Sequence record: MH560358
Strand: one strand, 5' to 3'
DNA: 64,000 bases
Origin: Escherichia virus KFS-EC
Position 1 is the first letter of the stretch. Each line of letters begins with the position of its first letter. Below are positions 3,344 to 46,486 of the stretch, piece after piece. The notes beneath the pieces were generated by a model. That model saw only the letters and a list, made by a program, of their open reading frames with translations. It was not told the DNA's origin and ran no database searches. The position numbers and the translations under genes were made by a program.

Positions 3344-3688
3344 TTATTTTTTCATGAGCTTAATGGCTTCTTCCATAGCCAGCACATTTCGATAGTTAGG
3401 GTATCGTGTTAGATCGTCATACATTCGCTTAAGGGTGGAAACTTCCTCAAACTCTGGGTTTTCTAGATACAGTTGAACAAATTGTTTCTCTACCATCTCG
3501 GCTTTTAGCTTGTCTGCTTGTTCCTGTTCATATGATTTCGTTGGACCCAACACCAACAAAATGATAAAGGTGATCAACGGGCTAATGATCAATGATAGGA
3601 TAACATAACCGATAACGCTACGGTTTAAACGGCTTGCATACATGCCTACCAGGAAAACAAAAAGGATATAGATAAACAGAAAGAACAT
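3344..3688 (-). CDS. hypothetical membrane protein (two predicted hydrophobic segments)
   Basis: ORF track; N-terminal FFLFIYILFVFLVGMYA and second hydrophobic stretch. Confidence 0.5.
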   Translation of the reverse strand: MFFLFIYILFVFLVGMYASRLNRSVIGYVILSLIISPLITFIILLVLGPTKSYEQEQADKLKAEMVEKQFVQLYLENPEFEEVSTLKRMYDDLTRYPNYRNVLAMEEAIKLMKK

Positions 3689-3695
3689 ATAATGG

Positions 3696-4169
3696 TTACT
3701 CCTTATTTTCGCGCTCGTACTTTTCGAAATAAAATTCTACTGGCTGGTCATGAATTGACAGCAAGCCAAAGCGTTTAGCCGCTCGCAATCCCATATTGCG
3801 CTGAATGTACTTCTGGAAGTTCTCGCGTATACACTTACGCCAGTATTCTAAGCCCATACAGCTTTTATAAAGATTGCATTGCACACACGCCGGATTCATG
3901 TTATCAAGTATATCATGTTCCGGTTTATGCATTCCTACAACCTTATACTTCCACGATCCATCATCATTACGGGCAATTCGTCCATTTTCATCATAGACTA
4001 CCTTTGAGCGTCGCAATACTGGTTTGATGTGGTCTGCGTGCCAGCGATCCCCTAGTTCCTCGCCACAATAGGCACAGCGTCCACCATATTTCATTTTCAG
4101 GATCTGGCGTTGCTCTTTCTTTGACAATTTTTTAGGTTTAGGGGCTTTCGACCCTTCATTATCACACAT
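3696..4169 (-). CDS. HNH endonuclease (zinc-finger type), putative homing endonuclease
   Basis: CAYCGEEL...HADHIKP...N...CVQCN motif set. Confidence 0.7.
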   Translation of the reverse strand: MCDNEGSKAPKPKKLSKKEQRQILKMKYGGRCAYCGEELGDRWHADHIKPVLRRSKVVYDENGRIARNDDGSWKYKVVGMHKPEHDILDNMNPACVQCNLYKSCMGLEYWRKCIRENFQKYIQRNMGLRAAKRFGLLSIHDQPVEFYFEKYERENKE

Positions 4170-6684: not shown

Positions 6685-6720
6685 AATTTTCTTACCTCTT
6701 CAATTCATCTCAATAGTAAA

Positions 6721-7332
6721 TTATTTATATTTCGCGACCTTTGGATTTCTCCGCAGACCGGAATGTATTTGCGCTATACAACAATAAGAAACATTAAACA
6801 TATCAGCTATAATTTGCTTCTTAACTTTTCCTTTAAGCCGCATTATTTCTTCGACTTGCGCATTTGTCAGTTTTGCCCGTGAGTGGTTTTCACCGACATT
6901 GTTATTGAGTCCAGTTCTAAATGAATGTCTCATATTTTCTAGTAAGGTTACTATTTCTAGATTCCACACATAATTGCAGGTTTTTACACCATTGATGTGA
7001 TTAACCTCAAGTCCGGTAACGTCTCCTAGAAATGCATTTGCTACAAGTCGATGTATCTTTTCGGCTTTAACTGAGATTTTACCATTGTCTTTTTGTTTTG
7101 ACAATGTTGAATAATAATATCCATATCGGTCTAAAATTGGTTTTATTATTTTACCAGCACGTTTTTGTTTTACGAGCTTAATATTACCGGGAGAAACTTC
7201 TCTATAAAATTCGATACTTCGGTCAATAGATCTCAATCTACCATAATTAGAGATTTCATACCACGGATAACCTACAGCTTGTCTCCATTCTTCCGGCGCT
7301 GGTAATACGATATTATCATCTTTTGTTTCCAT
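6721..7332 (-). CDS. HNH homing endonuclease with NUMOD4-like N-terminal motif
   Basis: WRQAVGYPWYEISNYGRLRS (NUMOD4-like) followed by HRLVANAFLG...EVNHINGVKTCN (HNH_3); start at internal ATG. Confidence 0.7.
   Translation of the reverse strand: METKDDNIVLPAPEEWRQAVGYPWYEISNYGRLRSIDRSIEFYREVSPGNIKLVKQKRAGKIIKPILDRYGYYYSTLSKQKDNGKISVKAEKIHRLVANAFLGDVTGLEVNHINGVKTCNYVWNLEIVTLLENMRHSFRTGLNNNVGENHSRAKLTNAQVEEIMRLKGKVKKQIIADMFNVSYCCIAQIHSGLRRNPKVAKYK
6722..6729 (-). promoter_or_regulatory. T4-type late promoter box TATAAATA
   Basis: Exact TATAAATA on minus strand about 40 nt upstream of gene 31 start. Confidence 0.4.
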
Positions 7333-7334
7333 TG

Positions 7335-7655
7335 TCAACTACCACCGTAAATTTCTACGATCTGTGCTGGAGTCAGCCCGTCTACATTAATCAGACTATC
7401 AAGCCCAAAACTACGGAAACCTTCAACTGCAATTTCATATACTGGCAAAGATGTTTCTGATTCTTTACGCGGTTTTTCAACATTAGGAACTAACCACTTT
7501 TCGTATGTTTCGAAAGGCATCAGTGCCGGATCTCGCGTGGCGATCATCTCGCGGACAGTACCATCTTTCTTAGTAAACTGCAAAGAGTGAGTACCGACCG
7601 AAAACATTTTCTTTAGTGCTTCACGAAGTGCGATATTATCAATTTGTTCGGTCAT
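7335..7655 (-). CDS. hypothetical protein (106 aa)
   Basis: ORF-track frame; start moved to internal ATG (track start is TTG). Confidence 0.4.
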   Translation of the reverse strand: MTEQIDNIALREALKKMFSVGTHSLQFTKKDGTVREMIATRDPALMPFETYEKWLVPNVEKPRKESETSLPVYEIAVEGFRSFGLDSLINVDGLTPAQIVEIYGGS

Positions 7656-24510: not shown

Positions 24511-25092
24511 TCATCCTCTTTTTGGAAAATTTAAATAAGCATACTCGCCAACTATTTCATGTGCTGCACGGTCATAAGCCTTAGCCGCCTCAACTTCTGT
24601 CTCAAAGTATCCTAGATGTATATTCTTTCGATTGATAACAATATACGCCTTCCACGGCTTTTTCTTGCTTGGTGATAATGATACACCTTTATATTTGCTA
24701 TGGCAAGCCTTTTTCTTTGAGACGTTAAACTGATTTTGCTGTTCGGTTGCTTCTCTCATGTTTGACGGTCTATTGTTAGTTTTGTCTTGGTCTATGTGAT
24801 CTATTCGTTCAACCTGAGTACCATACTCTAAAAACCAGACAACTCTATGTACAAACAGATTAAGTTTATGACCATTGTTGTAAAATGTAAAGTATAAATA
24901 TCCTTCTTTATGGAGACATACCCTTACCACATCACCTTTTTTGTATATGGACCCTTCTTTTCGGAATCCAGCAGCTACAGAATCCTTTAAATGGTATAAT
25001 ATTCCATCGACATGATAGAATCTACCTTTTATCGCTTTCTGTGTCTCGATATCCCAAAATTTTGTTTTTGCCACAACAAACACCACACACAA
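24511..25092 (-). CDS. HNH homing endonuclease with C-terminal AP2-like DNA-binding domain
   Basis: HRVVWFLEYG...IDHIDQDKTNNRPSNMREAT (HNH_3) plus YKGVSL...WKAYI...LGYFETEVEAAKAYD (AP2-like). Confidence 0.7.
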   Translation of the reverse strand: MCVVFVVAKTKFWDIETQKAIKGRFYHVDGILYHLKDSVAAGFRKEGSIYKKGDVVRVCLHKEGYLYFTFYNNGHKLNLFVHRVVWFLEYGTQVERIDHIDQDKTNNRPSNMREATEQQNQFNVSKKKACHSKYKGVSLSPSKKKPWKAYIVINRKNIHLGYFETEVEAAKAYDRAAHEIVGEYAYLNFPKRG

Positions 25093-30201: not shown

Positions 30202-30209
30202 TATAAATA
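30202..30209 (+). promoter_or_regulatory. T4-type late promoter box TATAAATA
   Basis: Exact TATAAATA about 34 nt upstream of gene 36 ATG. Confidence 0.5.
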
Positions 30210-31803: not shown

Positions 31804-34566
31804 ATGGCAGATTTAAACAGAATCCAGTTTAAACGCACTAGCGCAGCCGGACGTAAACCGGATGCTGGTACGATGAATCCGGGAGAGTTGGCAATTAACT
31901 TAGCAGACCAATATCTGCTTACAAAAAATGATGGTGGGCAAATTGTTAATTTAAGCTGCCCTCCAGTTTATGACAAGAGCGTTAATGTAAAAGGTCGTGT
32001 GGTTGCAGATGACCTTATGTGGAGTAATACCGCAAACTATTTCGATGACCCGACCGCACGAAATCTTGATAAATTTGGGGCATTTCGTACTAATGATATG
32101 GATGGTCATCTAGCACTTGCTTTGCATATTCCCCATCCTAGCGGTATAAATCATGCTCGTGGGTTTGATTTTACTTATGGTTCTAACGTTGTTCCTACTG
32201 TAAAAACCTATGGTTATAACGCTGATGGTGTATTGGCATATTCATATCGCATGTATCACGAAGGTGATAAGCCTAGTCCGTCAGAATTAAATGTATACAG
32301 CAAACAAGAAGTAGACCGGATGTTCCAGAAGACCATCAACTTTGGTGTAGAAACTGGATGGTTTAAAATTGCTACCGCCTTTATTCCGCAAAATGATGGA
32401 CGTAGCTTGAAAATTAGATTGATTGGTGGAAGTGGGTGGAACGTAGGACAAACTGGACAATGTAATATTATTGAACTTGTTATAAGGACTAGCAACGGTT
32501 CGCCTAAAGGAATTAACTTTGTTGCGTATCATCATGTTTCTGGTTACGAAAATCAATTTTGTGCCATTAATACAGGTGATGACACTTATGATATCTATGC
32601 ATATTACTTCGAATTTACTAATATGGTAATGGCTGAATATCAAGCGTCCAGCGGTGTTAATTTAACTGTACTTGATCGACCTGAATATGTCGGCGAAAAA
32701 CCTGTAGCTGATCATATCTATGATGCATATACAATATACTCCTTTAACAGTTTCAGTAACCGTGGAACGTTAAATTTTGCTGGAAACCCTCAAGGCCAAT
32801 ATGACATTGAGCATTTGAACGTGCAACAAACTAACAGCAAAAAGATGTTGCGTCGCTTCCGTAGTTCTGGTCCTGCCACTATCTGGCATGAGACAGTTGA
32901 TGATAACCAGTATCGTCTTGCTACTGGATACGAAGATACAAATCAGGAATTATTGCTGACAGCAACATCCGGGTTACATGTCAAGAAATTAACATTGGAT
33001 GGCGGTGTCACTGGAAATTCTGGTATTGATATTCGTCGAGGACCAAACGAATCAAGCCATTTTAATTTCATGGATTATCGCACTGGACAAGATGTTCGTA
33101 ATGGTTGGTTTGGTTTTGGTGATGGAACAACCAAAGATTTTATTTGGTGGAACGATAACGGTCAAAACTCTATAAACCTGATTGAAGACGGTGAATTACA
33201 TATTACTGGCGGTAGAGGCCAGAAAATTGTAATGAATAGCGAAGTTGCATTATCTGAAAATGCTCGTTTGGCTGTTAAAGGTGGCAATTATGGCTTAATT
33301 TTTAGAAATGATGGCGTTGGCTTCCATATTCTTACCACAGATCTCGGTGATTCATTTGGACCGTGGAATACTCGTAGACCATTCAGCTATGATTTTGCGG
33401 ACGGTGGATTGTATTTAGGTGGTACTGCAACCGCTCGTTGTTTGCATCTGGGAATTGATGGTAGCACTCGTCTCGAAGACAACCTTTTCTTTAAAGCTGG
33501 TTCTCGTCAATCTATGGACTATATGGAACTAGTCCATTGGGGGGCAAGCAATACAGGTCGAAATAACGTTTTAAGTCTTCGTGACTCAAAAGGATTTTTC
33601 GCAGAATTTGAACGATTGGGTGATGATACCATTAAAAACACCTTCTTCGGGAAACTTAAAGTTAATCGTGGTTCTGACGCAATCGTCATGAATGCCGAAA
33701 CGGGTGATTCGTCTATATATTTGCTGGGTACTTGTGCTGATAATAACAACTGGTATATCGGTAAAGGTGGTGCTGATAATGGATTAGCGTTCTATAGCTA
33801 TGCTACTAATGCTGCTATCAATATTACAAACGCTGGTGATATCGCGCTAAGTCCAAAAGGTGTCGAAATGACTCATGTCAATAACGTTCGATTCTATGTT
33901 CATGGTGAACGTTGGACTGCTAGCCAATCTGGAGGCTGGGGCGATCAATGGGGATTAGAAGCGCCGATATTTGTCGATCATGGTTATGTTGGACCAGATA
34001 GCTATTATCCAATTATTAAAGGAAGAAGTTTAATCACCAATCAAGGGTATACAACTGCCGTCGATTTTGGTCTTCGTCGTGTTCCTCAAAATTGGGGGCA
34101 AGCTATTATTCGTGTTGGATCTGCGGATGCATCGCCAGCGGCTGGTCATCCTCAAGCTGTATTCGAGTTCCATCATGATGGTACTTTCTATTCTCCTGGT
34201 AATGGTAACTTTAACGATGTTTATATTCGTTCCGATGGTCGTCTGAAAATTAATGTTGAAGATTACGAAGAAAATGCGGTGGATAAGGTAAATAAACTCA
34301 AAGTTAAAACCTACGATAAAGTTAAATCTCTTAATGACCGAGAAGTTATAGGTCATGAGATTGGTATTATCGCACAGGATTTACAAGAGGTATTACCGGA
34401 AGCTGTTAAAACCGCAAAAATTGGTGGTCTTGATAACCCAGAAGAAATTTTAACAATTTCAAACTCCGCAGTGAACGCGCTTTTAATTAAAGCGGTCCAA
34501 GAAATGAGCGAAGAAAATAAACTTCTTCGTGAACGTCTTGCTGCAATTGAAGCTAAATTAGGGTAA
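31804..34566 (+). CDS. 37: long tail fibre distal subunit with C-terminal chaperone-like domain
   Basis: MADLNRIQFKRTSAAGRKPDAG...GELAINL N-terminus; 920 aa; C-terminal SDGRLKINVE...GIIAQDLQEVLPEAV...coiled-coil tail. Confidence 0.85.
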   Translation: MADLNRIQFKRTSAAGRKPDAGTMNPGELAINLADQYLLTKNDGGQIVNLSCPPVYDKSVNVKGRVVADDLMWSNTANYFDDPTARNLDKFGAFRTNDMDGHLALALHIPHPSGINHARGFDFTYGSNVVPTVKTYGYNADGVLAYSYRMYHEGDKPSPSELNVYSKQEVDRMFQKTINFGVETGWFKIATAFIPQNDGRSLKIRLIGGSGWNVGQTGQCNIIELVIRTSNGSPKGINFVAYHHVSGYENQFCAINTGDDTYDIYAYYFEFTNMVMAEYQASSGVNLTVLDRPEYVGEKPVADHIYDAYTIYSFNSFSNRGTLNFAGNPQGQYDIEHLNVQQTNSKKMLRRFRSSGPATIWHETVDDNQYRLATGYEDTNQELLLTATSGLHVKKLTLDGGVTGNSGIDIRRGPNESSHFNFMDYRTGQDVRNGWFGFGDGTTKDFIWWNDNGQNSINLIEDGELHITGGRGQKIVMNSEVALSENARLAVKGGNYGLIFRNDGVGFHILTTDLGDSFGPWNTRRPFSYDFADGGLYLGGTATARCLHLGIDGSTRLEDNLFFKAGSRQSMDYMELVHWGASNTGRNNVLSLRDSKGFFAEFERLGDDTIKNTFFGKLKVNRGSDAIVMNAETGDSSIYLLGTCADNNNWYIGKGGADNGLAFYSYATNAAINITNAGDIALSPKGVEMTHVNNVRFYVHGERWTASQSGGWGDQWGLEAPIFVDHGYVGPDSYYPIIKGRSLITNQGYTTAVDFGLRRVPQNWGQAIIRVGSADASPAAGHPQAVFEFHHDGTFYSPGNGNFNDVYIRSDGRLKINVEDYEENAVDKVNKLKVKTYDKVKSLNDREVIGHEIGIIAQDLQEVLPEAVKTAKIGGLDNPEEILTISNSAVNALLIKAVQEMSEENKLLRERLAAIEAKLG

Positions 34567-34604
34567 TTGGAAAGCGGGGAGAAATCTCCGCTAAGGATTC
34601 TTAT

Positions 34605-34928
34605 ATGGGATATTGGGTAAGTAGTGAAATTAATACTAAAATCGATGCTTTAAAATGGCATGTATTTGATATTCCTAACGGCTATGGTACTGCTCGTGCT
34701 GGTGTCGCTGTAATGCGTCATAATGCTGGTGGTGGGTGGTCTGATGCACATATTAACGTAGATGGTTTGACCGTTGCTCGTCGTCGTGGTGGGACCAATT
34801 GGGGATCTACTATAAATTCGTTTGTTCCTGCTGGCTGCACCGTCTCCTTTGGTTTAGGGGGTGAAGGTGGTGACTCAGAATTGCTTTTGCATGGCTTTTG
34901 TGTGTCTGGAAGTCATAAGGGGTCATGA
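34605..34928 (+). CDS. hypothetical glycine-rich protein downstream of gene 37
   Basis: 107 aa; GGGW, GGEGGD glycine-rich stretches; SD AAGGA upstream. Confidence 0.4.
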   Translation: MGYWVSSEINTKIDALKWHVFDIPNGYGTARAGVAVMRHNAGGGWSDAHINVDGLTVARRRGGTNWGSTINSFVPAGCTVSFGLGGEGGDSELLLHGFCVSGSHKGS

Positions 34929-35087
34929 TTGGGGACAGATCCATTCTTGTATTGTGCCGCAGGGAGTAACGATCACGGTAACTACAAACAGGGGTATTTC
35001 CCATCTTCGTTATAGACGCTTGAGCAACCGTTAAAAAAAGAATTAAGGAAAACTCCCAGGGAAGGGAACTACTAAGGAGAAACGGCT

Positions 35088-35306
35088 ATGGTCTATAATA
35101 TCGTCATTGGTGCTTTGTCTAATTTCGGAATGAAACTATTGTCAAAGTTAATTAGTGAAAAGATGCTCACTAAAATTTTCTTCTATTGCGCTCGTCGTCT
35201 TGCGGCTTATACCAATACGCCAATTGATGATCGTTTTGTGGAAGAACTTTATAAGGAGTTTAATAAAGATCAGTCAGAAGATAGCAACGAGCAAAATAAA
35301 AAATAG
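35088..35306 (+). CDS. hypothetical small protein (72 aa)
   Basis: ORF track; SD AAGGAGAAA upstream. Confidence 0.35.
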   Translation: MVYNIVIGALSNFGMKLLSKLISEKMLTKIFFYCARRLAAYTNTPIDDRFVEELYKEFNKDQSEDSNEQNKK

Positions 35307-35361: not shown

Positions 35362-36018
35362 ATGCAAGTTTCTGAAAAAGGGAAAGACTTTTCTATCTCA
35401 AATGTCCTGCGCGCTATTTTCACAACTAAAAGCACGGAGTTGCTCGTACTTCGTGTTTTTGCTGCCGTCGTGTTGTCCATATTAGCATTTGTCGTTTATA
35501 GTAAAAACGAGTTATTTGCGCTTTATAAAGAGACTCGTTATGAGACTTATGCTCACGTTCTCCAGGTAGAGAAAGACCGCAATTTTGATAATGCAGCACA
35601 GGAGCAGTTACAGATAGTTCATGTGTCGGCTGATGCCGATTTTTCTGCTGTTTTTAGTTTTCGTCCGAAAAACCTAAACTATTTTGTTGATTTGGTGGCA
35701 TATGAAGGAAAGTTACCGCATACAATCGATGAAAAAAATTTAGGCGGATTCCCTATCAATAAAACGAGTGAAGAATATCGTAGGCATCTTTTAGGTAAAT
35801 CCTATTTTACCGATAAAGATTTCCAGTATATTCCATCAAGAGAAAAGAAATTAGAGAGTATCGATATAGGGGTTATGTATTCTTGTCCTATATTCAATCT
35901 CGACAATGTCTATTCTGGTAGTATCTCCATTGCATGGAAGAATAAACCGGATATTGACATTGAGAATTTAGATACTCTTTGCAATCAATCTGCCAGAATC
36001 CTCGGAAGGATTAGATAA
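35362..36018 (+). CDS. t: holin (T4 t family)
   Basis: 218 aa; single N-terminal TM (VLRVFAAVVLSILAFVVY) then large periplasmic domain; position after tail-fibre genes. Confidence 0.85.
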   Translation: MQVSEKGKDFSISNVLRAIFTTKSTELLVLRVFAAVVLSILAFVVYSKNELFALYKETRYETYAHVLQVEKDRNFDNAAQEQLQIVHVSADADFSAVFSFRPKNLNYFVDLVAYEGKLPHTIDEKNLGGFPINKTSEEYRRHLLGKSYFTDKDFQYIPSREKKLESIDIGVMYSCPIFNLDNVYSGSISIAWKNKPDIDIENLDTLCNQSARILGRIR

Positions 36019-36022
36019 CTTA

Positions 36023-36056
36023 AAGGGGAAGCCTTTCGGCCTCCCCTTCTTTTTAT
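36023..36056. terminator. bidirectional terminator between convergent holin gene and minus-strand gene
   Basis: GGGGAAGCC-TTTC-GGCCTCCCC hairpin flanked by A-run and T-run. Confidence 0.5.
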
Positions 36057-36301
36057 TGGCGCATAGAAGCCCCTGAATCACATTTTGACGCTGTATGATG
36101 AAAACAGGTAGCGTACCAGTCATCGGCTTGTTTGTCTTCGTCAGAAAACGCGTAATTGCGTTGTATGCCGTTTTCTACTTTGACCAGTGCAATAGCTGTT
36201 TCTGGAAGATCAATCAATCGGACAAAATCACCATCTTCCCACTCTACACGAGCAATATCATAGCCCATCTCAAAGTATACAATCGCTTGTTCTAATTTCA
36301 T
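36053..36301 (-). CDS. hypothetical protein (82 aa)
   Basis: ORF track. Confidence 0.4.
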   Translation of the reverse strand: MKLEQAIVYFEMGYDIARVEWEDGDFVRLIDLPETAIALVKVENGIQRNYAFSDEDKQADDWYATCFHHTASKCDSGASMRQ

Positions 36302-36627
36302 TCTGGAAACTTCCCGTAAACATTCTCTGCCAGCTTACGTGCATCTTTTACAATATCTTTCATATAATGACTATAATTTTTAGCTAGATCAATGATGCAA
36401 TCAACAAAGAAGTAATAGCGTCGCAGTGCTACCAGCTCAACATCTTCAAGATGACCATTTTCTCCAATCGCTGAAATATGTTTAAATTCCTTTCGGATCG
36501 CGTCCATCGCTACATTAACTTCTTTTATAATATCTTTCGTATTATATGCACCTCGACTAATCAAAATTTTGGTTAGGTCTTCTGCTTTTTCGTGAAAGTT
36601 GTCAATTTCAAACTCGATCATAATCAC
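36298..36627 (-). CDS. hypothetical protein (109 aa), paralog of 36736-37068
   Basis: C-terminal IVKDARKLAENVYGKF matches IVDEARIMTENIFGKF in the neighbour. Confidence 0.4.
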   Translation of the reverse strand: MIMIEFEIDNFHEKAEDLTKILISRGAYNTKDIIKEVNVAMDAIRKEFKHISAIGENGHLEDVELVALRRYYFFVDCIIDLAKNYSHYMKDIVKDARKLAENVYGKFPE

Positions 36628-36735
36628 CTCTCATAATTTCACGCTGTTGTTTCAACATTTTTTCGTGGTTTGCTAATTCTATACCTTGTAATAGCATAAC
36701 CAGTGCAATTTTCAATGATTCATCATCTTTCATAA

Positions 36736-44377: not shown

Positions 44378-46486
44378 TTAAAATTTAACATTCTTAACCA
44401 GTTTCATAAAGTCTTGTGCGCGTTTGTCATTATGCAGAATACGATACCAGTTATCTACAATATCATACAGTAACGGGCTATTCTCTTTAAACTTCGCACA
44501 AACTGCTTTAATTCGTTCGTTTGCTACCGTGAATTTTTCATCACAAATCTTTTTAGTTTCTTCGTCCATAATCCAACGAGTACGAAGGAGTAACTTGGAA
44601 ACCTCTTTATTATAATGACGACCGTACAGTCTGTCAATAAATTCTGGAACACAGCGTTCTAGTTCATCGTCATGAAACAACATAGTGATCACACCCAGAT
44701 ATTCGCCATACCCCAGATGATTGGTCTTAACCTTCTTAGCCAGACCAGCCAGCTTACCGCAAACAAATTCTAGCGCACATTCCAATTGTTCGTCAACGAG
44801 ATATTTTTGTGTCTCGTTTCGAGTAATAATATACTTTGTTACCCCGAAGTAGTCAAGCGCCGTGTGTAATGTATTTTCACTATGGATCGATTTACGACTA
44901 CGGCTTTCGAATGCATCACCTACGCGGAACATGTGCAAGCCTGATAACTCGCGAATCTCTGCCGCTTTCATGTGATGGCTGGTTTTATGCCAATTGTCAC
45001 CAATCTTTTCCATAATATACACGTTAGGCAGCTTGGGAGTAGCTTCACGTTGTGTACGCTCGGTCTTTTCCGGTTTAACTGCTTTAGCACGCAGATCATC
45101 GGCCTCAGACACTTTAATCACGGTCATTTCAGAATCATCATAATACTGTTTGATGTACTCGAAAGTCTCCATATGTTTTTCGTTGTTCTGACGGAACACC
45201 AGTACCTTTTTATTGATTCCGTATTCCTGGACCATGCCGTTAAGAGTCAGTGCACGCAGTTTCGGTTTATCTGTATCATCAATAAGACACGTAATATCTT
45301 CTTTATGCATCCATACAAAATGCGTAATGTTGTATTGACTGCTAACGAAAGCAGGGCGCAATTTACTGATTGTGTGACGAGTACGATACAGAGTATACAC
45401 CTGACCTTCTACGTCATTTGGCGAATCTTTACCAGCATTCACAAACTTATTATAGATTGCTACCGGATCATCCCACTGACCGATCTTACCCATCTTGCTA
45501 ATAATATTGCGTTGCGTCGATGAATACTCGCTCATAAATTGAGCAAGTTTACGCTCTGTTTTAATGTTGGCGATCTTTTCTTTAACCTTTTCCAACATCA
45601 TTTCATTGATTTCTGCAATGCGTTTTTCGATGTTCGCTTTAGTCTCAATTGACAAGTGAACTTCTTCACGCGATGGCATAAGGTCCAGATCACCCAACTC
45701 AAAATTAATGTAAATGGTCTGGTGCTGGCGGTTTACAGCTTCTAACCATGTTCCGCGAACATATTCATACGGGATCGGATACTGGATCTTACCCATGATT
45801 GCATATACTACATAGGAATCGTTATCACGCCCATTACAAACATAATAATTATCAAAGCTAGGGAAATAATTAATTTCGATTGCATTGATATTAGGTTTGT
45901 GTTCCCCAAAATGACGCAGTACAAATTGCGCTTCTCGATGCCATGTCTGAATGTCTTTTTCTTTCACCGGAATAGTGATTTTCAGACCATTGTCTTCATA
46001 GGTCGGTTCGTCGAAAATCTGCACCATTTTCGGCATCGAGTTTTGCACAAATGCCGTAAAGCCATAAGCGCGACCATTGTAATAGTTTACGATTGTAAAG
46101 GTGTCGGTATAGCTATAAGCAGATTTCGCACCTAAACCAAAAGATCCGATATAATCATTAGTCTGGTCTTTTGTTGATTCAAAGTAAACCGTAAACAGTT
46201 GTTCTAATTCTTTCTTAGACGGAATACCAGTACCATAATCACGCACAGAAAAATACGGTTCGATTGCAGTCGGTAAATGAATATCAAACGGACGATCTAA
46301 GGTTCCGGCTTCTTTGTGAGTGTCGGTAGCATTGCACGAATACTCACGGACGCAAGCACGCTCACAATATTGATAAGTGTTCTTAGAAAGCACCATAAAA
46401 GCCTTGCTACTTGCTTTCAGTGAAAAATCAACCGCACCGCTCAAGTCACTGCCAAATACTTCTTCATTATCAATATGCATTTTCAT
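44378..46486 (-). CDS. rIIA: rIIA-like protein
   Basis: 702 aa; N-terminal GHKL-like ATPase region (GTGIP, GxGxKS); position between topoisomerase gene and rIIB. Confidence 0.75.
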   Translation of the reverse strand: MKMHIDNEEVFGSDLSGAVDFSLKASSKAFMVLSKNTYQYCERACVREYSCNATDTHKEAGTLDRPFDIHLPTAIEPYFSVRDYGTGIPSKKELEQLFTVYFESTKDQTNDYIGSFGLGAKSAYSYTDTFTIVNYYNGRAYGFTAFVQNSMPKMVQIFDEPTYEDNGLKITIPVKEKDIQTWHREAQFVLRHFGEHKPNINAIEINYFPSFDNYYVCNGRDNDSYVVYAIMGKIQYPIPYEYVRGTWLEAVNRQHQTIYINFELGDLDLMPSREEVHLSIETKANIEKRIAEINEMMLEKVKEKIANIKTERKLAQFMSEYSSTQRNIISKMGKIGQWDDPVAIYNKFVNAGKDSPNDVEGQVYTLYRTRHTISKLRPAFVSSQYNITHFVWMHKEDITCLIDDTDKPKLRALTLNGMVQEYGINKKVLVFRQNNEKHMETFEYIKQYYDDSEMTVIKVSEADDLRAKAVKPEKTERTQREATPKLPNVYIMEKIGDNWHKTSHHMKAAEIRELSGLHMFRVGDAFESRSRKSIHSENTLHTALDYFGVTKYIITRNETQKYLVDEQLECALEFVCGKLAGLAKKVKTNHLGYGEYLGVITMLFHDDELERCVPEFIDRLYGRHYNKEVSKLLLRTRWIMDEETKKICDEKFTVANERIKAVCAKFKENSPLLYDIVDNWYRILHNDKRAQDFMKLVKNVKF

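Follow-up and report, generated by a model that had tools for sequence, protein, structure and literature searches.

The window analysed here, i.e., the whole stretch of 64,000 nucleotides from Escherichia virus KFS-EC (record MH560358), is from a Krischvirus, an RB49-like relative of T4. Between the gene for the distal subunit of the long tail fibre (gene 37) and the holin gene (t), it contains two small ORFs, which are genes or gene remnants and not chance ORFs. The features of the region are as follows (positions in the window; + denotes the strand presented):

31804..34566, + strand: gene 37, distal long-tail-fibre subunit, 920 aa (Pfam, PHROGs)
34574..34591, + strand: stem-loop GCGGGGA-GAAA-TCTCCGC in the interval between gene 37 and ORF1 (read from the sequence)
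34593-34597, + strand: Shine-Dalgarno-like AAGGA of ORF1 (read from the sequence)
34605..34928, + strand: ORF1, 107 aa, ATG start; almost certainly a chimeric, frameshift-truncated remnant of a three-gene (A-B-C) cassette
34605..34865, + strand: segment of ORF1 assigned to gene A (96.6% nucleotide identity to gene A of phage G37-3)
34866..34872, + strand: deletion junction with a 7-nt exact microhomology, GGTGGTG (alignment to intact cassettes)
34873..34925, + strand: in-frame gene C codons DSELLLHGFCVSGSHKG, then Ser (alignment to intact cassettes)
34919..34922, + strand: GGGG run, frameshift site (alignment; GGG in all three relatives)
34921..35034, + strand: rest of gene C (codons 65-100 and stop), +1 frame with respect to ORF1 (translation)
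34926-34928, + strand: ORF1 stop codon TGA (sequence)
35035..35087, + strand: true intergenic spacer, 53 bp (alignment)
35074-35079, + strand: Shine-Dalgarno-like AAGGAG of ORF2 (read from the sequence)
35088..35306, + strand: ORF2, 72 aa, ATG start; Dc5/phrog_402/PM2 gp l-like, lysis cluster
35298-35303, + strand: A6 run in ORF2 (extra A seen in the alignment)
35362..36018, + strand: gene t, T4-type holin, 218 aa (Pfam Phage_holin_T, E 3e-60; phrog_860, E 2e-87)
36025..36046, no strand assigned: GC-rich hairpin followed by a T-run, 3' of t, terminator-like (read from the sequence)

The gene 37 product matches phrog_1699 (long tail fibre distal subunit, E 1e-145) and Gp34_trimer of Pfam (E 2e-12), and it carries at its C-terminus (residues 810-869) a Peptidase_S74 domain, i.e., a self-cleaving chaperone domain (Pfam, E 4.6e-14). 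It is 82% identical to gp37 of phage kvi, 80% identical to a prophage fibre (L013), and 42% identical to gp37 of RB49. From 34432 on, i.e., over its last approximately 135 nt, the gene is instead 96.6% identical to G37-3. The stem-loop that follows gene 37 is kept in the alignment with the phages G37-3, UPWr_E1, and G2248, and the annotation of G2248 places a putative terminator at its counterpart; a consensus terminator scan missed it because it has no T-run. At the other end of the region, the hairpin after t probably serves both convergent units, and terminators are annotated at its counterpart in G37-3 and G2248.

Intact versions of the segment directly 3' of gene 37 are present in G37-3, UPWr_E1, and G2248. 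They comprise a cassette of three small paralogous genes, A, B, and C, which encode 98-101 aa each. The intact cassette also occurs in metagenomic Krischvirus contigs and in approximately 20 siphovirus-type prophage loci (E. coli/Salmonella prophages of roughly 23-38 kb), in which it lies 3' of a side-fibre gene, and at every locus found it directly follows the gene for an S74-processed fibre. All ten loci analysed by orthogroup contain one A, one B, and one C, in the order A-B-C, with 1-3 nt between the stop codon of A and the start codon of B and with the stop codon of B overlapping the start codon of C as TAATG. Identity across these ten loci is 0.61-0.71 within a type and 0.27-0.35 between types; the three paralogues are 25-35% identical. 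The order A-B-C 3' of a fibre with an S74-like motif was also seen in nine IMG/VR prophages (eight of the nine loci intact). When 1.84 billion representatives were searched with an HMM of the family, 18 proteins were returned, of which 15 are stand-alone family members of 97-129 aa, and none of the 18 clusters contains a fusion of a cassette protein to a fibre. The three long matches (5-22 stretches each) are probably spurious; the one inspected (P0053) is a tandem-repeat protein. No paper mentioning the cassette was found, and the family has been undescribed until now.

Aligned with the intact cassettes of G37-3, UPWr_E1, and G2248, ORF1 is almost certainly a remnant of such a cassette, A(1-89)::C(49-65) plus Ser, that would have arisen by a deletion and then a frameshift. 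It is 91% identical to gene A of G37-3 over 98 aa (tblastn, E 9e-57), keeps the cassette position directly 3' of an S74-type gp37, and retains within residues 1-89 the family residues W4, G33, D47, and G54 and the FDIPNG[WY] loop. At the junction, codon 89 of A is joined to codon 49 of C, and 463 bp of the relatives, namely the whole of B with the adjoining end of A and first half of C, are missing. The microhomology, which in a wider view amounts to 11 of 13 matches over 34860-34872, is common to Gly codons of A (approximately 86-89) and C (approximately 45-48), and the blastn segments overlap there at 34857-34872. A tblastn search of A, B, and C against the 64-kb window returned parts of A and C only and no B. 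ORF1 also lacks the codons for the last β-strand of A (VEYFKFMEF), which comprises residues 89-97 in the AF2 model of an A-type protein; this strand is replaced by the C-derived DSELLLHGFCVSGSHKGS, and the C-terminal strand motif [FY]-x-[FY]-[RM]-[RE] is not found in ORF1.

The end of ORF1 is explained by an extra G (GGG to GGGG), which shifts the frame and thus introduces a stop after 107 codons. Gene C continues in the +1 frame as part of a mechanical ORF (34861-35034), and the translation of this remainder, GHDWGQIHSCIVPQGVTITVTTNRGISHLRYRRLSNR*, is identical to the C-terminus of the gene C product of G2248 and UPWr_E1. The locus is therefore without a full A-B-C set, i.e., it has lost B and half of C, and C is out of frame. 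The two ORFs, as delineated in the original prediction (107 aa and 72 aa, between gene 37 and the holin gene), were confirmed, and they are indeed 159 bp apart; however, the gap of about 160 bp is not non-coding as had been stated, since approximately two-thirds of it (34929-35034) is the remainder of gene C, and only 35035-35087 is intergenic. Programmed frameshifting at ORF1 was considered and set aside because there is no slippery-site context beyond GGGG. GC content over the cassette remnant is 0.45-0.47, compared with 0.34-0.42 in the flanks, a slight rise that carries little information on origin.

ORF2 differs from ORF1 in being, with near certainty, an intact and naturally occurring 72-aa allele of a conserved Dc5/PM2 gp l-like gene that forms a lysis cluster with the holin gene t. 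It matches phrog_402 (E 4e-20), and its RB49 homologue is annotated as Dc5, a name that appears in the literature as an annotation label only. The exact 72-aa product is present on nine independent contigs, with a precomputed Pfam assignment to PF26925 (Phage_PM2_Gpl); PF26925 was not reported for ORF2 in a direct search of the local Pfam copy. PM2 gp l scores 24.8 bits against an HMM built from five ORF2-family members, and ORF2 matches the core conserved between the family and gp l (L-x-S/T-E-x-hydrophobic ... A-x-x-hydrophobic-A ... T-x-x-D-D/N). The 72-aa allele stops seven codons earlier than the 79-aa form. With respect to gene neighbourhood, ORF2 lies 55 nt upstream of t, its homologue in Suspvirus mistaenkt (Ounavirinae) overlaps the holin start, the layout in Erwinia phage vEam_PM_21 is the same as in Suspvirus mistaenkt, the homologue in Vibrio phage 1.112.O is directly 3' of a lysozyme-like gene, and in PM2 gene l follows gene k. 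PM2 gp l is reportedly an accessory lysis factor with a role in outer-membrane disruption. By analogy, we infer that ORF2 may encode a small accessory lysis protein acting with the holin.

A property of ORF2 that bears directly on the original prediction is that the Dc5-like gene is kept in Krischvirus whatever fills the slot after gene 37. Together with the homology to PM2 gp l and the adjoining holin/endolysin genes, this places the 72-aa ORF outside the fibre module; in the original prediction, both ORFs had been viewed as occupants of the place where T-even phages encode the gp38 adhesin or chaperone. The slot itself was correctly identified: phage kvi encodes a 259-aa gp38 adhesin between gene 37 and the Dc5-like gene, as do other Krischvirus in the same slot, and some members of the cassette-type prophage family have a 98.5%-identical gp38 there. 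The gp38-bearing prophages also contain a scar ORF, Dc5(1-9)::C(41-100). In RB49-type phages, gp38 is encoded at a remote locus and the slot is empty; such a remote gp38 is absent in the cassette phages. By tblastn, gp38 was not detected in UPWr_E1 (whole genome) or G37-3 (approximately 95% of the genome), and kvi gp38 had no match in the 64-kb window.

Thus, the reading of ORF1 and/or ORF2 as short divergent homologues of gp38 is scarcely credible. It rested on their position between gene 37 and t and on the high glycine content of ORF1, which was rightly noted (20 Gly of 107 aa, 18.7%). However, neither ORF1 nor ORF2 nor the +1-frame ORF matches Pfam GP38 (PF05268) or Gp38_N (PF21721) at E<=1, which agrees with the earlier statement that neither looks like a full-length gp38. 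Likewise, none of 29 cassette family members matches GP38, and the profile of the family aligned with kvi gp38 gives an hhalign probability of 0.4%. The profile search against gp38 families that had been proposed as a check therefore came out against homology, and the glycine-rich stretches taken as reminiscent of adhesin-type motifs are not gp38 motifs. ORF1 is almost certainly an A/C deletion chimera with a frameshift and not a short adhesin, the fold predicted for the cassette proteins is a jelly roll and not the gp38 architecture, and ORF2 is a member of the family of PM2 gp l, i.e., a known family unrelated to gp38, which the original prediction itself had named as grounds for its rejection.

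Nothing significant was found for A, B, C, or ORF1 in Pfam, NCBIfam, PHROGs, or PADLOC, and none of the 29 family members matches Pfam C1q or TNF. A weak match to phrog_9116 ('tail protein', E 0.009) disappeared when intact family members were used, and a PDB profile search returned only designed 'Pizza' propeller proteins, in which PNGxxxDSAG repeats gave approximately 5 bits per domain, i.e., chance. Structure prediction was more informative. The AF2 model of an A-type protein (pLDDT 82) consists of an N-terminal helix and a compact antiparallel β-sandwich superposable on C1q/TNF heads, and subunit A is thereby modelled as a C1q/TNF-like jelly roll. A Foldseek search of this model against viral models returned tail-fibre proteins and C1q-domain proteins, and the same type of head fold is also found in fibre proteins and lectins. 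Conserved positions of the family are 19-27, G33, D47, G54, 75-77, and 95-97; the N-terminal helix and the segments near 39-46, 60-64, and 83-92 are where variable positions cluster.

It has to be considered whether the decay of the cassette in KFS-EC is real and complete. If the true phage had an intact A-B-C cassette and a 79-aa Dc5, the deletion and the two homopolymer insertions would be errors. Indeed, each of the two frameshifts consists of one base inserted into a homopolymer (GGGG or AAAAAA), the exact 107-aa product and the exact gp37 of the window were found in no other record, and the exact junction sequence was not found in IMG/VR. Nonetheless, such an artefact is very improbable. 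The A6 allele of ORF2 is on nine independent contigs from different samples, and this 'insertion' is thus natural; the 7-nt microhomology is too short for assembler repeat collapse; and the nearest relatives differ by side, with G37-3 (96.6%) on the left and two contigs with intact cassettes (L028 and L030, 98.5-98.9% identity from 34857 on) on the right. Moreover, in the comparison with kvi, which covers approximately 47 kb, no other coding frameshift was seen: 157 kvi ORFs have a match in the window, and none of them is genuinely split (19 flagged as such are wrong-strand ORFs or stop-to-stop length differences), and the other homopolymer indels are all intergenic by reading of the kvi gene table. 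Decayed cassette genes are also present elsewhere, e.g., a frameshifted A (P0018), a truncated A (P0027), and a frameshifted B (L037). It is also highly improbable that ORF1 retains a function, whether its product acts as a single-subunit derivative or rare +1 reading of GGGG yields a 143-aa A::C fusion. Its Shine-Dalgarno site and start codon are intact, low-level quadruplet reading is possible at GGGG runs, and AF2 folds the chimera (pLDDT 74.9) into a complete, closed sandwich whose last strand is the C-derived SELLLHGF, although the alignment used consists of intact family members and biases the model. However, B is missing and C is half missing, compared with all three types in 10 of 10 analysed loci, no frameshift-stimulatory element is evident, and, as mentioned above, the product occurs in no other record.

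The explanation favoured here, taken as a whole, combines a chimeric remnant, an adhesin-related role of the intact cassette, and a lysis-cluster ORF2, and its probability can be put at roughly 0.6. Concerning the cassette, the odds are close to even, if slightly short of it, that its intact form encodes a heterotrimer at the fibre tip, an adhesin or an accessory in place of gp38. A, B, and C would then be three different subunits of one 1:1:1 complex, a view that the three orthogroups, the fixed order, and the translational coupling support indirectly. This C1q/TNF-like heterotrimeric knob might act at the trimeric fibre tip after self-cleavage of the S74 chaperone; its conserved end (the FDIPNGW loop and C-terminal F-x-F-R/M) could serve assembly or docking, and the Gly-rich variable loops at the opposite end could face the receptor. 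The fibre of G37-3 is 85% identical to that of a prophage (L005), and an identical A protein is found 3' of two very different fibre tips (L005 vs. L006/L009), both of which also occur with gp38. No co-variation between cassette and fibre tip was found, and there is consequently no pointer to a specific docking surface. In KFS-EC, there is an even chance that the cassette is non-functional and that recognition is performed by something else, most likely a remote gp38. The latter would be encoded at an RB49-type locus, flanked by counterparts of RB49p078 and RB49p080, approximately 54 kb beyond t and outside the window; with it present, the cassette would be redundant and could decay freely. 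In a stronger form, which is on balance unlikely, A, B, and C would form a 1:1:1 pseudo-threefold C1q/TNF-like cap that docks on the C-terminus of the trimeric fibre once S74 processing has exposed it, and this cap would be the actual receptor-binding adhesin. If so, it would be a heterotrimeric adhesin with genes of its own that can functionally replace the monomeric gp38 and be replaced by it, and that is exchanged as a module between lytic T4-like phages and temperate siphoviruses, and the window would capture this module being lost.

The same observations can be accommodated differently. The position of the cassette is usual for chaperone-type genes of fibres, the same A protein accompanies different fibre tips, as a general helper might, and RB49-type fibres fold without the cassette; its products may thus be fibre assembly or folding factors and not virion adhesins, in which case the remnant would be a lost helper that gp37 does without. 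This is improbable, given that the fibres have their own S74 intramolecular chaperone, that the predicted fold is the C1q/TNF-type head of fibre proteins and lectins, that the variable Gly-rich loops at one end resemble a binding face, and that its strict alternation with gp38, itself an adhesin, points to an adhesin-like role. It is distinctly improbable that the cassette is cargo (a 'moron') unrelated to the fibre, e.g., for superinfection exclusion or anti-defence, in a recombination-prone spot. The slot is an exchange hot spot, the cassette family is without a described function, and the cassette is dispensable in KFS-EC; however, at approximately 25 loci in two unrelated phage types, it always accompanies an S74 fibre gene within the late structural operon, with coupled translation, and the cassette phages searched (UPWr_E1 and G37-3) have no detectable gp38. 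No PADLOC defence model was matched, and by eye the N-termini do not resemble signal peptides, which argues against envelope exclusion.

The host range of T4-like coliphages is now predicted mainly from gp37 and gp38 (PMC12032242; bioRxiv 10.64898/2026.04.02.716166). Within this context, some Krischvirus (G37-3, UPWr_E1, G2248, and metagenomic relatives) carry an uncharacterised cassette, and G37-3 and UPWr_E1 are without detectable gp38. If the cassette is an adhesin, it would constitute a receptor-binding module of a new, portable class; models that predict receptors would have a gap at this point, and phage engineering would gain a candidate part. As regards annotation, ORF1 should be recorded as a pseudogene remnant and not as a 'gp38-like' gene, and the 72-aa ORF as a gp l-like lysis-cluster protein.

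Comparison with known systems shows both likeness and difference. ORF2 and PM2 gp l share the aligned conserved core, and both adjoin a holin gene; however, gp l comprises 51 aa, and the longer ORF2 has an additional segment at its N-terminus, ends in an acidic tail, and is paired with a T4-type holin. In relation to C1q/TNF heads, such as those of the C1q A/B/C heterotrimer, lymphotoxin a1b2, the BclA C-terminal domain, and phage fibre knobs, the cassette proteins are shorter (approximately 100 vs. 130 aa), have 7-8 strands and no sequence-level match, and are encoded by free-standing genes instead of being joined as a C-terminal domain to a fibre or collagen stalk. Tail-fibre assembly proteins (the T4-type gp38 chaperone, gp57A, and Tfa of Mu, P2, and lambda), of which Mu Tfa stays on the fibre tip, are, like the cassette, encoded by small genes immediately 3' of a fibre gene; nonetheless, neither Pfam nor PHROGs nor NCBIfam has a family that matches the cassette, its fibre has its own S74 chaperone, and the jelly roll predicted for its proteins resembles a lectin or knob. 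The gp38 adhesin of T2/T6/S16-type phages shares with the cassette the slot directly 3' of a gene 37 with a cleaved C-terminal S74 domain. The two alternate in both Krischvirus and the prophage family and are alike in combined size (approximately 300 aa for the cassette and 260 aa for gp38), and yet there is no sequence or profile similarity between them: gp38, described as a monomeric adhesin in which glycine-rich motifs and hypervariable segments occur (PMC12032242), is one polypeptide of approximately 260 aa, whereas the cassette encodes three separate predicted jelly-roll proteins of approximately 100 aa.

The original prediction placed two small ORFs, separated by about 160 bp of non-coding sequence, between gene 37 and the holin gene. 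The observation is real, and both positions were borne out, but the description was wrong. The interval is arranged as follows:

31804-34566, gene 37, 920 aa, with a Peptidase_S74 intramolecular chaperone domain at its end
34605-34928, ORF1, 107 aa
35088-35306, ORF2, 72 aa
35362-36018, T-type holin gene t, 218 aa

Megablast assigns the window to Krischvirus, i.e., RB49-like T4 relatives; no identical record was found by this search, and the top local match is G37-3 (96%, split in two pieces). In G37-3, UPWr_E1, and G2248, the tandem ORFs A, B, and C (98, 99-101, and 100 aa, respectively), which are mutually paralogous (25-34% identity), lie between gene 37 and the small ORF that precedes t. 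Nucleotide alignment shows that 463 bp of these three phages are missing from the window: gene A is intact up to ...GGTGAAGGTGGTG and is followed by mid-gene-C sequence, ACTCAGAA... The crossover is a 7-nt exact repeat, GGTGGTG (34866-34872), of glycine codons that are common to A and C but non-equivalent in position (~86-89 in A vs. ~45-48 in C); ORF1 accordingly encodes A(1-89)::C(49-...). All relatives have GGG 17 codons past the junction; in the window this run is GGGG (34919-34922), and the apparent extra G shifts the ORF1 frame, with TGA then at 34926. The remaining gene C (GHDWGQ...RRLSNR and stop) persists in the +1 frame at 34921-35034, where it encodes protein identical to gene C of G2248 and UPWr_E1, so approximately two thirds of the supposed non-coding interval is dead coding sequence of gene C and only 53 bp is real spacer. 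Gene B is wholly missing from the window. Judged from its sequence, ORF1 is a pseudogene remnant. An AlphaFold2 model of the 107-aa chimera, biased by its alignment, still gives a closed sandwich, with lower confidence (pLDDT 74.9); nonetheless, such a predicted sandwich cannot substitute for the missing B and C.

It is highly probable (roughly 0.9) that the 463-bp deletion is real. The competing explanation is that the deletion and insertions arose in sequencing or assembly, and it draws on the fact that no other occurrence was found of the ORF1 product, the window gp37, or the junction sequence. However, assemblers do not collapse 7-nt microhomology, and the flanks of the junction differ in their nearest relative, which is G37-3 for the A part (96.6%) and the contigs L028/L030 from 34857 onward (98.5-98.9%). 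A further length difference, A5 to A6 at 35298-35303, by which ORF2 is 72 instead of 79 aa long, is a natural allele: nine independent contigs, all from different samples and including a 163.7-kb metagenomic Krischvirus contig, encode the identical 72-aa protein. The other homopolymer length differences from phage kvi are all intergenic, according to our reading of the kvi gene table, and none of the 157 matched kvi ORFs is truly interrupted in the window: the 19 flagged ones are wrong-strand ORFs or stop-to-stop length differences.

The intact cassette belongs to a small, undescribed family for which no model was found in Pfam, NCBIfam, PHROG, or PADLOC. It comprises 37 clusters in 5.8 billion proteins, and every source name or context examined in this set is E. 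coli, Shigella, or Salmonella. Among 1.84 billion representatives, 18 clusters were obtained at 50% identity; the 15 that are clear family members are all free-standing proteins of 97-129 aa. Only three of 50,697 phage records carry the cassette. Beyond Krischvirus, it is found in a family of siphovirus-type prophages (IMG/VR contigs of 23-38 kb) whose portal is lambda-type, whose capsid protein is fused to an S78 protease, and whose tail tip is GpJ-like. In the prophage loci examined, A-B-C always lies directly 3' of a fibre gene (1020-1230 aa) that ends in Peptidase_S74. A-, B-, and C-type genes occupy positions 1, 2, and 3 in all ten loci analysed, where mean identity is 0.61-0.71 within and 0.27-0.35 between types, only 1-3 nt separate the stop of A from the start of B, and the stop of B and the start of C overlap in TAATG. 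Such an old triplication, retained with one copy per type, fixed order, and coupled translation, is the pattern that subunits of one complex would show. Decayed cassette genes also occur elsewhere, namely P0018, P0027, and gene B of an IMG/VR prophage (UViG_2778261069_000012; L037, 4800-5106). In the latter, B is seemingly frameshifted in an otherwise intact cassette; no ORF was called for B, and C begins later by one base.

AlphaFold2 predicts an A-type member (29-sequence alignment, pLDDT 82) to form a short N-terminal helix of lower confidence and a 7-8-strand beta-sandwich, and Foldseek matched it, against viral models, to tail-fibre and C1q-domain proteins. Within orthogroups, conservation is highest at 19-27 (FDIPNGW), G33, D47, G54, 75-77, and 95-97, and variability at the N-terminal helix, ~39-46, ~60-64, and ~83-92 (Gly-rich loops). 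Since alternate loops of a sandwich share an end, its topology suggests that one end would be conserved and the other variable.

The fibre and the cassette move together between Krischvirus and the prophage family. The prophage fibre L005 is 85% identical to residues 71-954 of G37-3 gp37, and residues 69-920 of the window gp37 share 68-73% identity with prophage fibres vs. only 42% with RB49 gp37. Window gene 37 itself is a mosaic, with residues 1-68 Krischvirus-like and residues 69-909 matching the side fibre of a prophage at 80% identity; its last ~135 nt turn G37-3-like, from 34432. Fibres of this group occur with two unrelated types of tip and with two variants of S74, and the window tip is nearest to those of gp38-partnered fibres (kvi 82%, L013 80%).

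The gp38-like reading of the original prediction finds no support, the cassette having no homology to gp38. The relation lies instead in position: a gp38 adhesin occupies exactly the slot of the cassette in Krischvirus phages such as kvi, FL04/15/20, G5211, G2494, and MIZ4/5. In approximately 42 Krischvirus records, including RB49, whose slot is empty, gp38 is found at a remote early-region locus (RB49p079), in agreement with its reported displacement in some Krischvirus (PMC12032242; bioRxiv 10.64898/2026.04.02.716166):

L026 9368-10144 (RB49 45367-46143), opposite strand, remote gp38, among early genes

The remote gp38 is missing in all three cassette phages, and tblastn found no gp38 in UPWr_E1 (complete genome) or G37-3 (~95%), with positive controls that worked. 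Three states were thus seen in the Krischvirus records examined, i.e., remote gp38, gene 37-adjacent gp38, and cassette with no gp38 in the two genomes searched. In prophages, the slot is sometimes filled by a gp38 that shares 98.5% identity with kvi gp38 and is directly followed in L013-L016 (4001-4213) by the 70-aa ORF P0028, in which the first nine codons of Krischvirus Dc5 are fused to the second half of gene C. This scar is the footprint of a Krischvirus segment that replaced A, B, and half of C, and it indicates that the adhesin region was exchanged very recently between lytic Krischvirus and siphovirus-type prophages.

Mainly because each Krischvirus genome checked carries one of the two, gp38 or the cassette, the comparative evidence suggests that the cassette performs the job of gp38, or at least renders gp38 dispensable. 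Several observations weigh against a simple tip cap. The same A protein stands behind two quite different fibre tips, gp38 is also found with both tip types, and RB49 has one of them, yet its slot is empty; only the last ~15 residues of S74, which are adjacent DNA, co-vary with the partner. The cassette may therefore instead be a chaperone or unrelated cargo. As for the phage studied here, no gp38 lies within the 64-kb window, and the remote locus would fall ~54 kb past t, beyond it; our best guess is that the phage carries the remote gp38. The cassette could have entered through a recombination event within the 3' end of gene 37, where G37-3 identity begins at 34432, and, being redundant, could then have decayed. 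The remnant is of interest for what it leads to, namely a fibre-linked cassette of three paralogues, uncharacterised and C1q/TNF-like, which takes turns with gp38 in the lytic as well as the temperate phages of enterobacteria.

Upstream of gene 34 (24893-24900, +) and of gene 36 (30202-30209, +), the T4-type late promoter motif TATAAATA occurs in exact form, and none was found between 30202 and t. The window has three such motifs vs. 5.4 expected by chance, i.e., no excess; their placement, not their count, is suggestive. Four segments have no blastn match in the collinear region of kvi (3352-3708, 6708-7347, 24523-25091, and 36423-36735) and are presumably insertions or replaced segments. Just 3' of t and convergent with it, an 82-aa ORF (36053-36301, -) scores 27.9 bits (gathering score 25; E 3e-6) against Pfam PF11195, Tad2-like (Thoeris anti-defence 2), and is a candidate anti-defence gene kept in Krischvirus relatives.

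ORF2 is a known, little-studied small gene of the lysis cluster. It is labelled Dc5 in RB49, is kept in Krischvirus irrespective of slot content, and matches phrog_402 (E 4e-20); its conserved core (residues 9-62) is whole in the 72-aa allele. A tblastn search recovered relatives from 385 phage records, among them Ounavirinae, Erwinia phages, and Vibrio phages. The relative in Suspvirus mistaenkt and in Erwinia phage vEam_PM_21 is flanked on one side by the tail-fibre gene and on the other by a small gene (annotated as a holin in mistaenkt) whose start it overlaps; in a Vibrio phage it lies 3' of a lysozyme-like gene. ORF2 is regarded as functional and as belonging to a lysis unit with t, not to the fibre unit. 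PM2 has been counted among the spanin-less phages (PMC6139136). The identical 72-aa protein has a precomputed Pfam match to PF26925 (Phage_PM2_Gpl), and PM2 gp l scores 24.8 bits over 42 aligned residues against a five-member ORF2-family profile. The late operon of PM2 ends with gene k and then gene l; Krupovic et al. reportedly showed in 2007 that gp k is the holin and that breakage of the outer membrane needs gp l.
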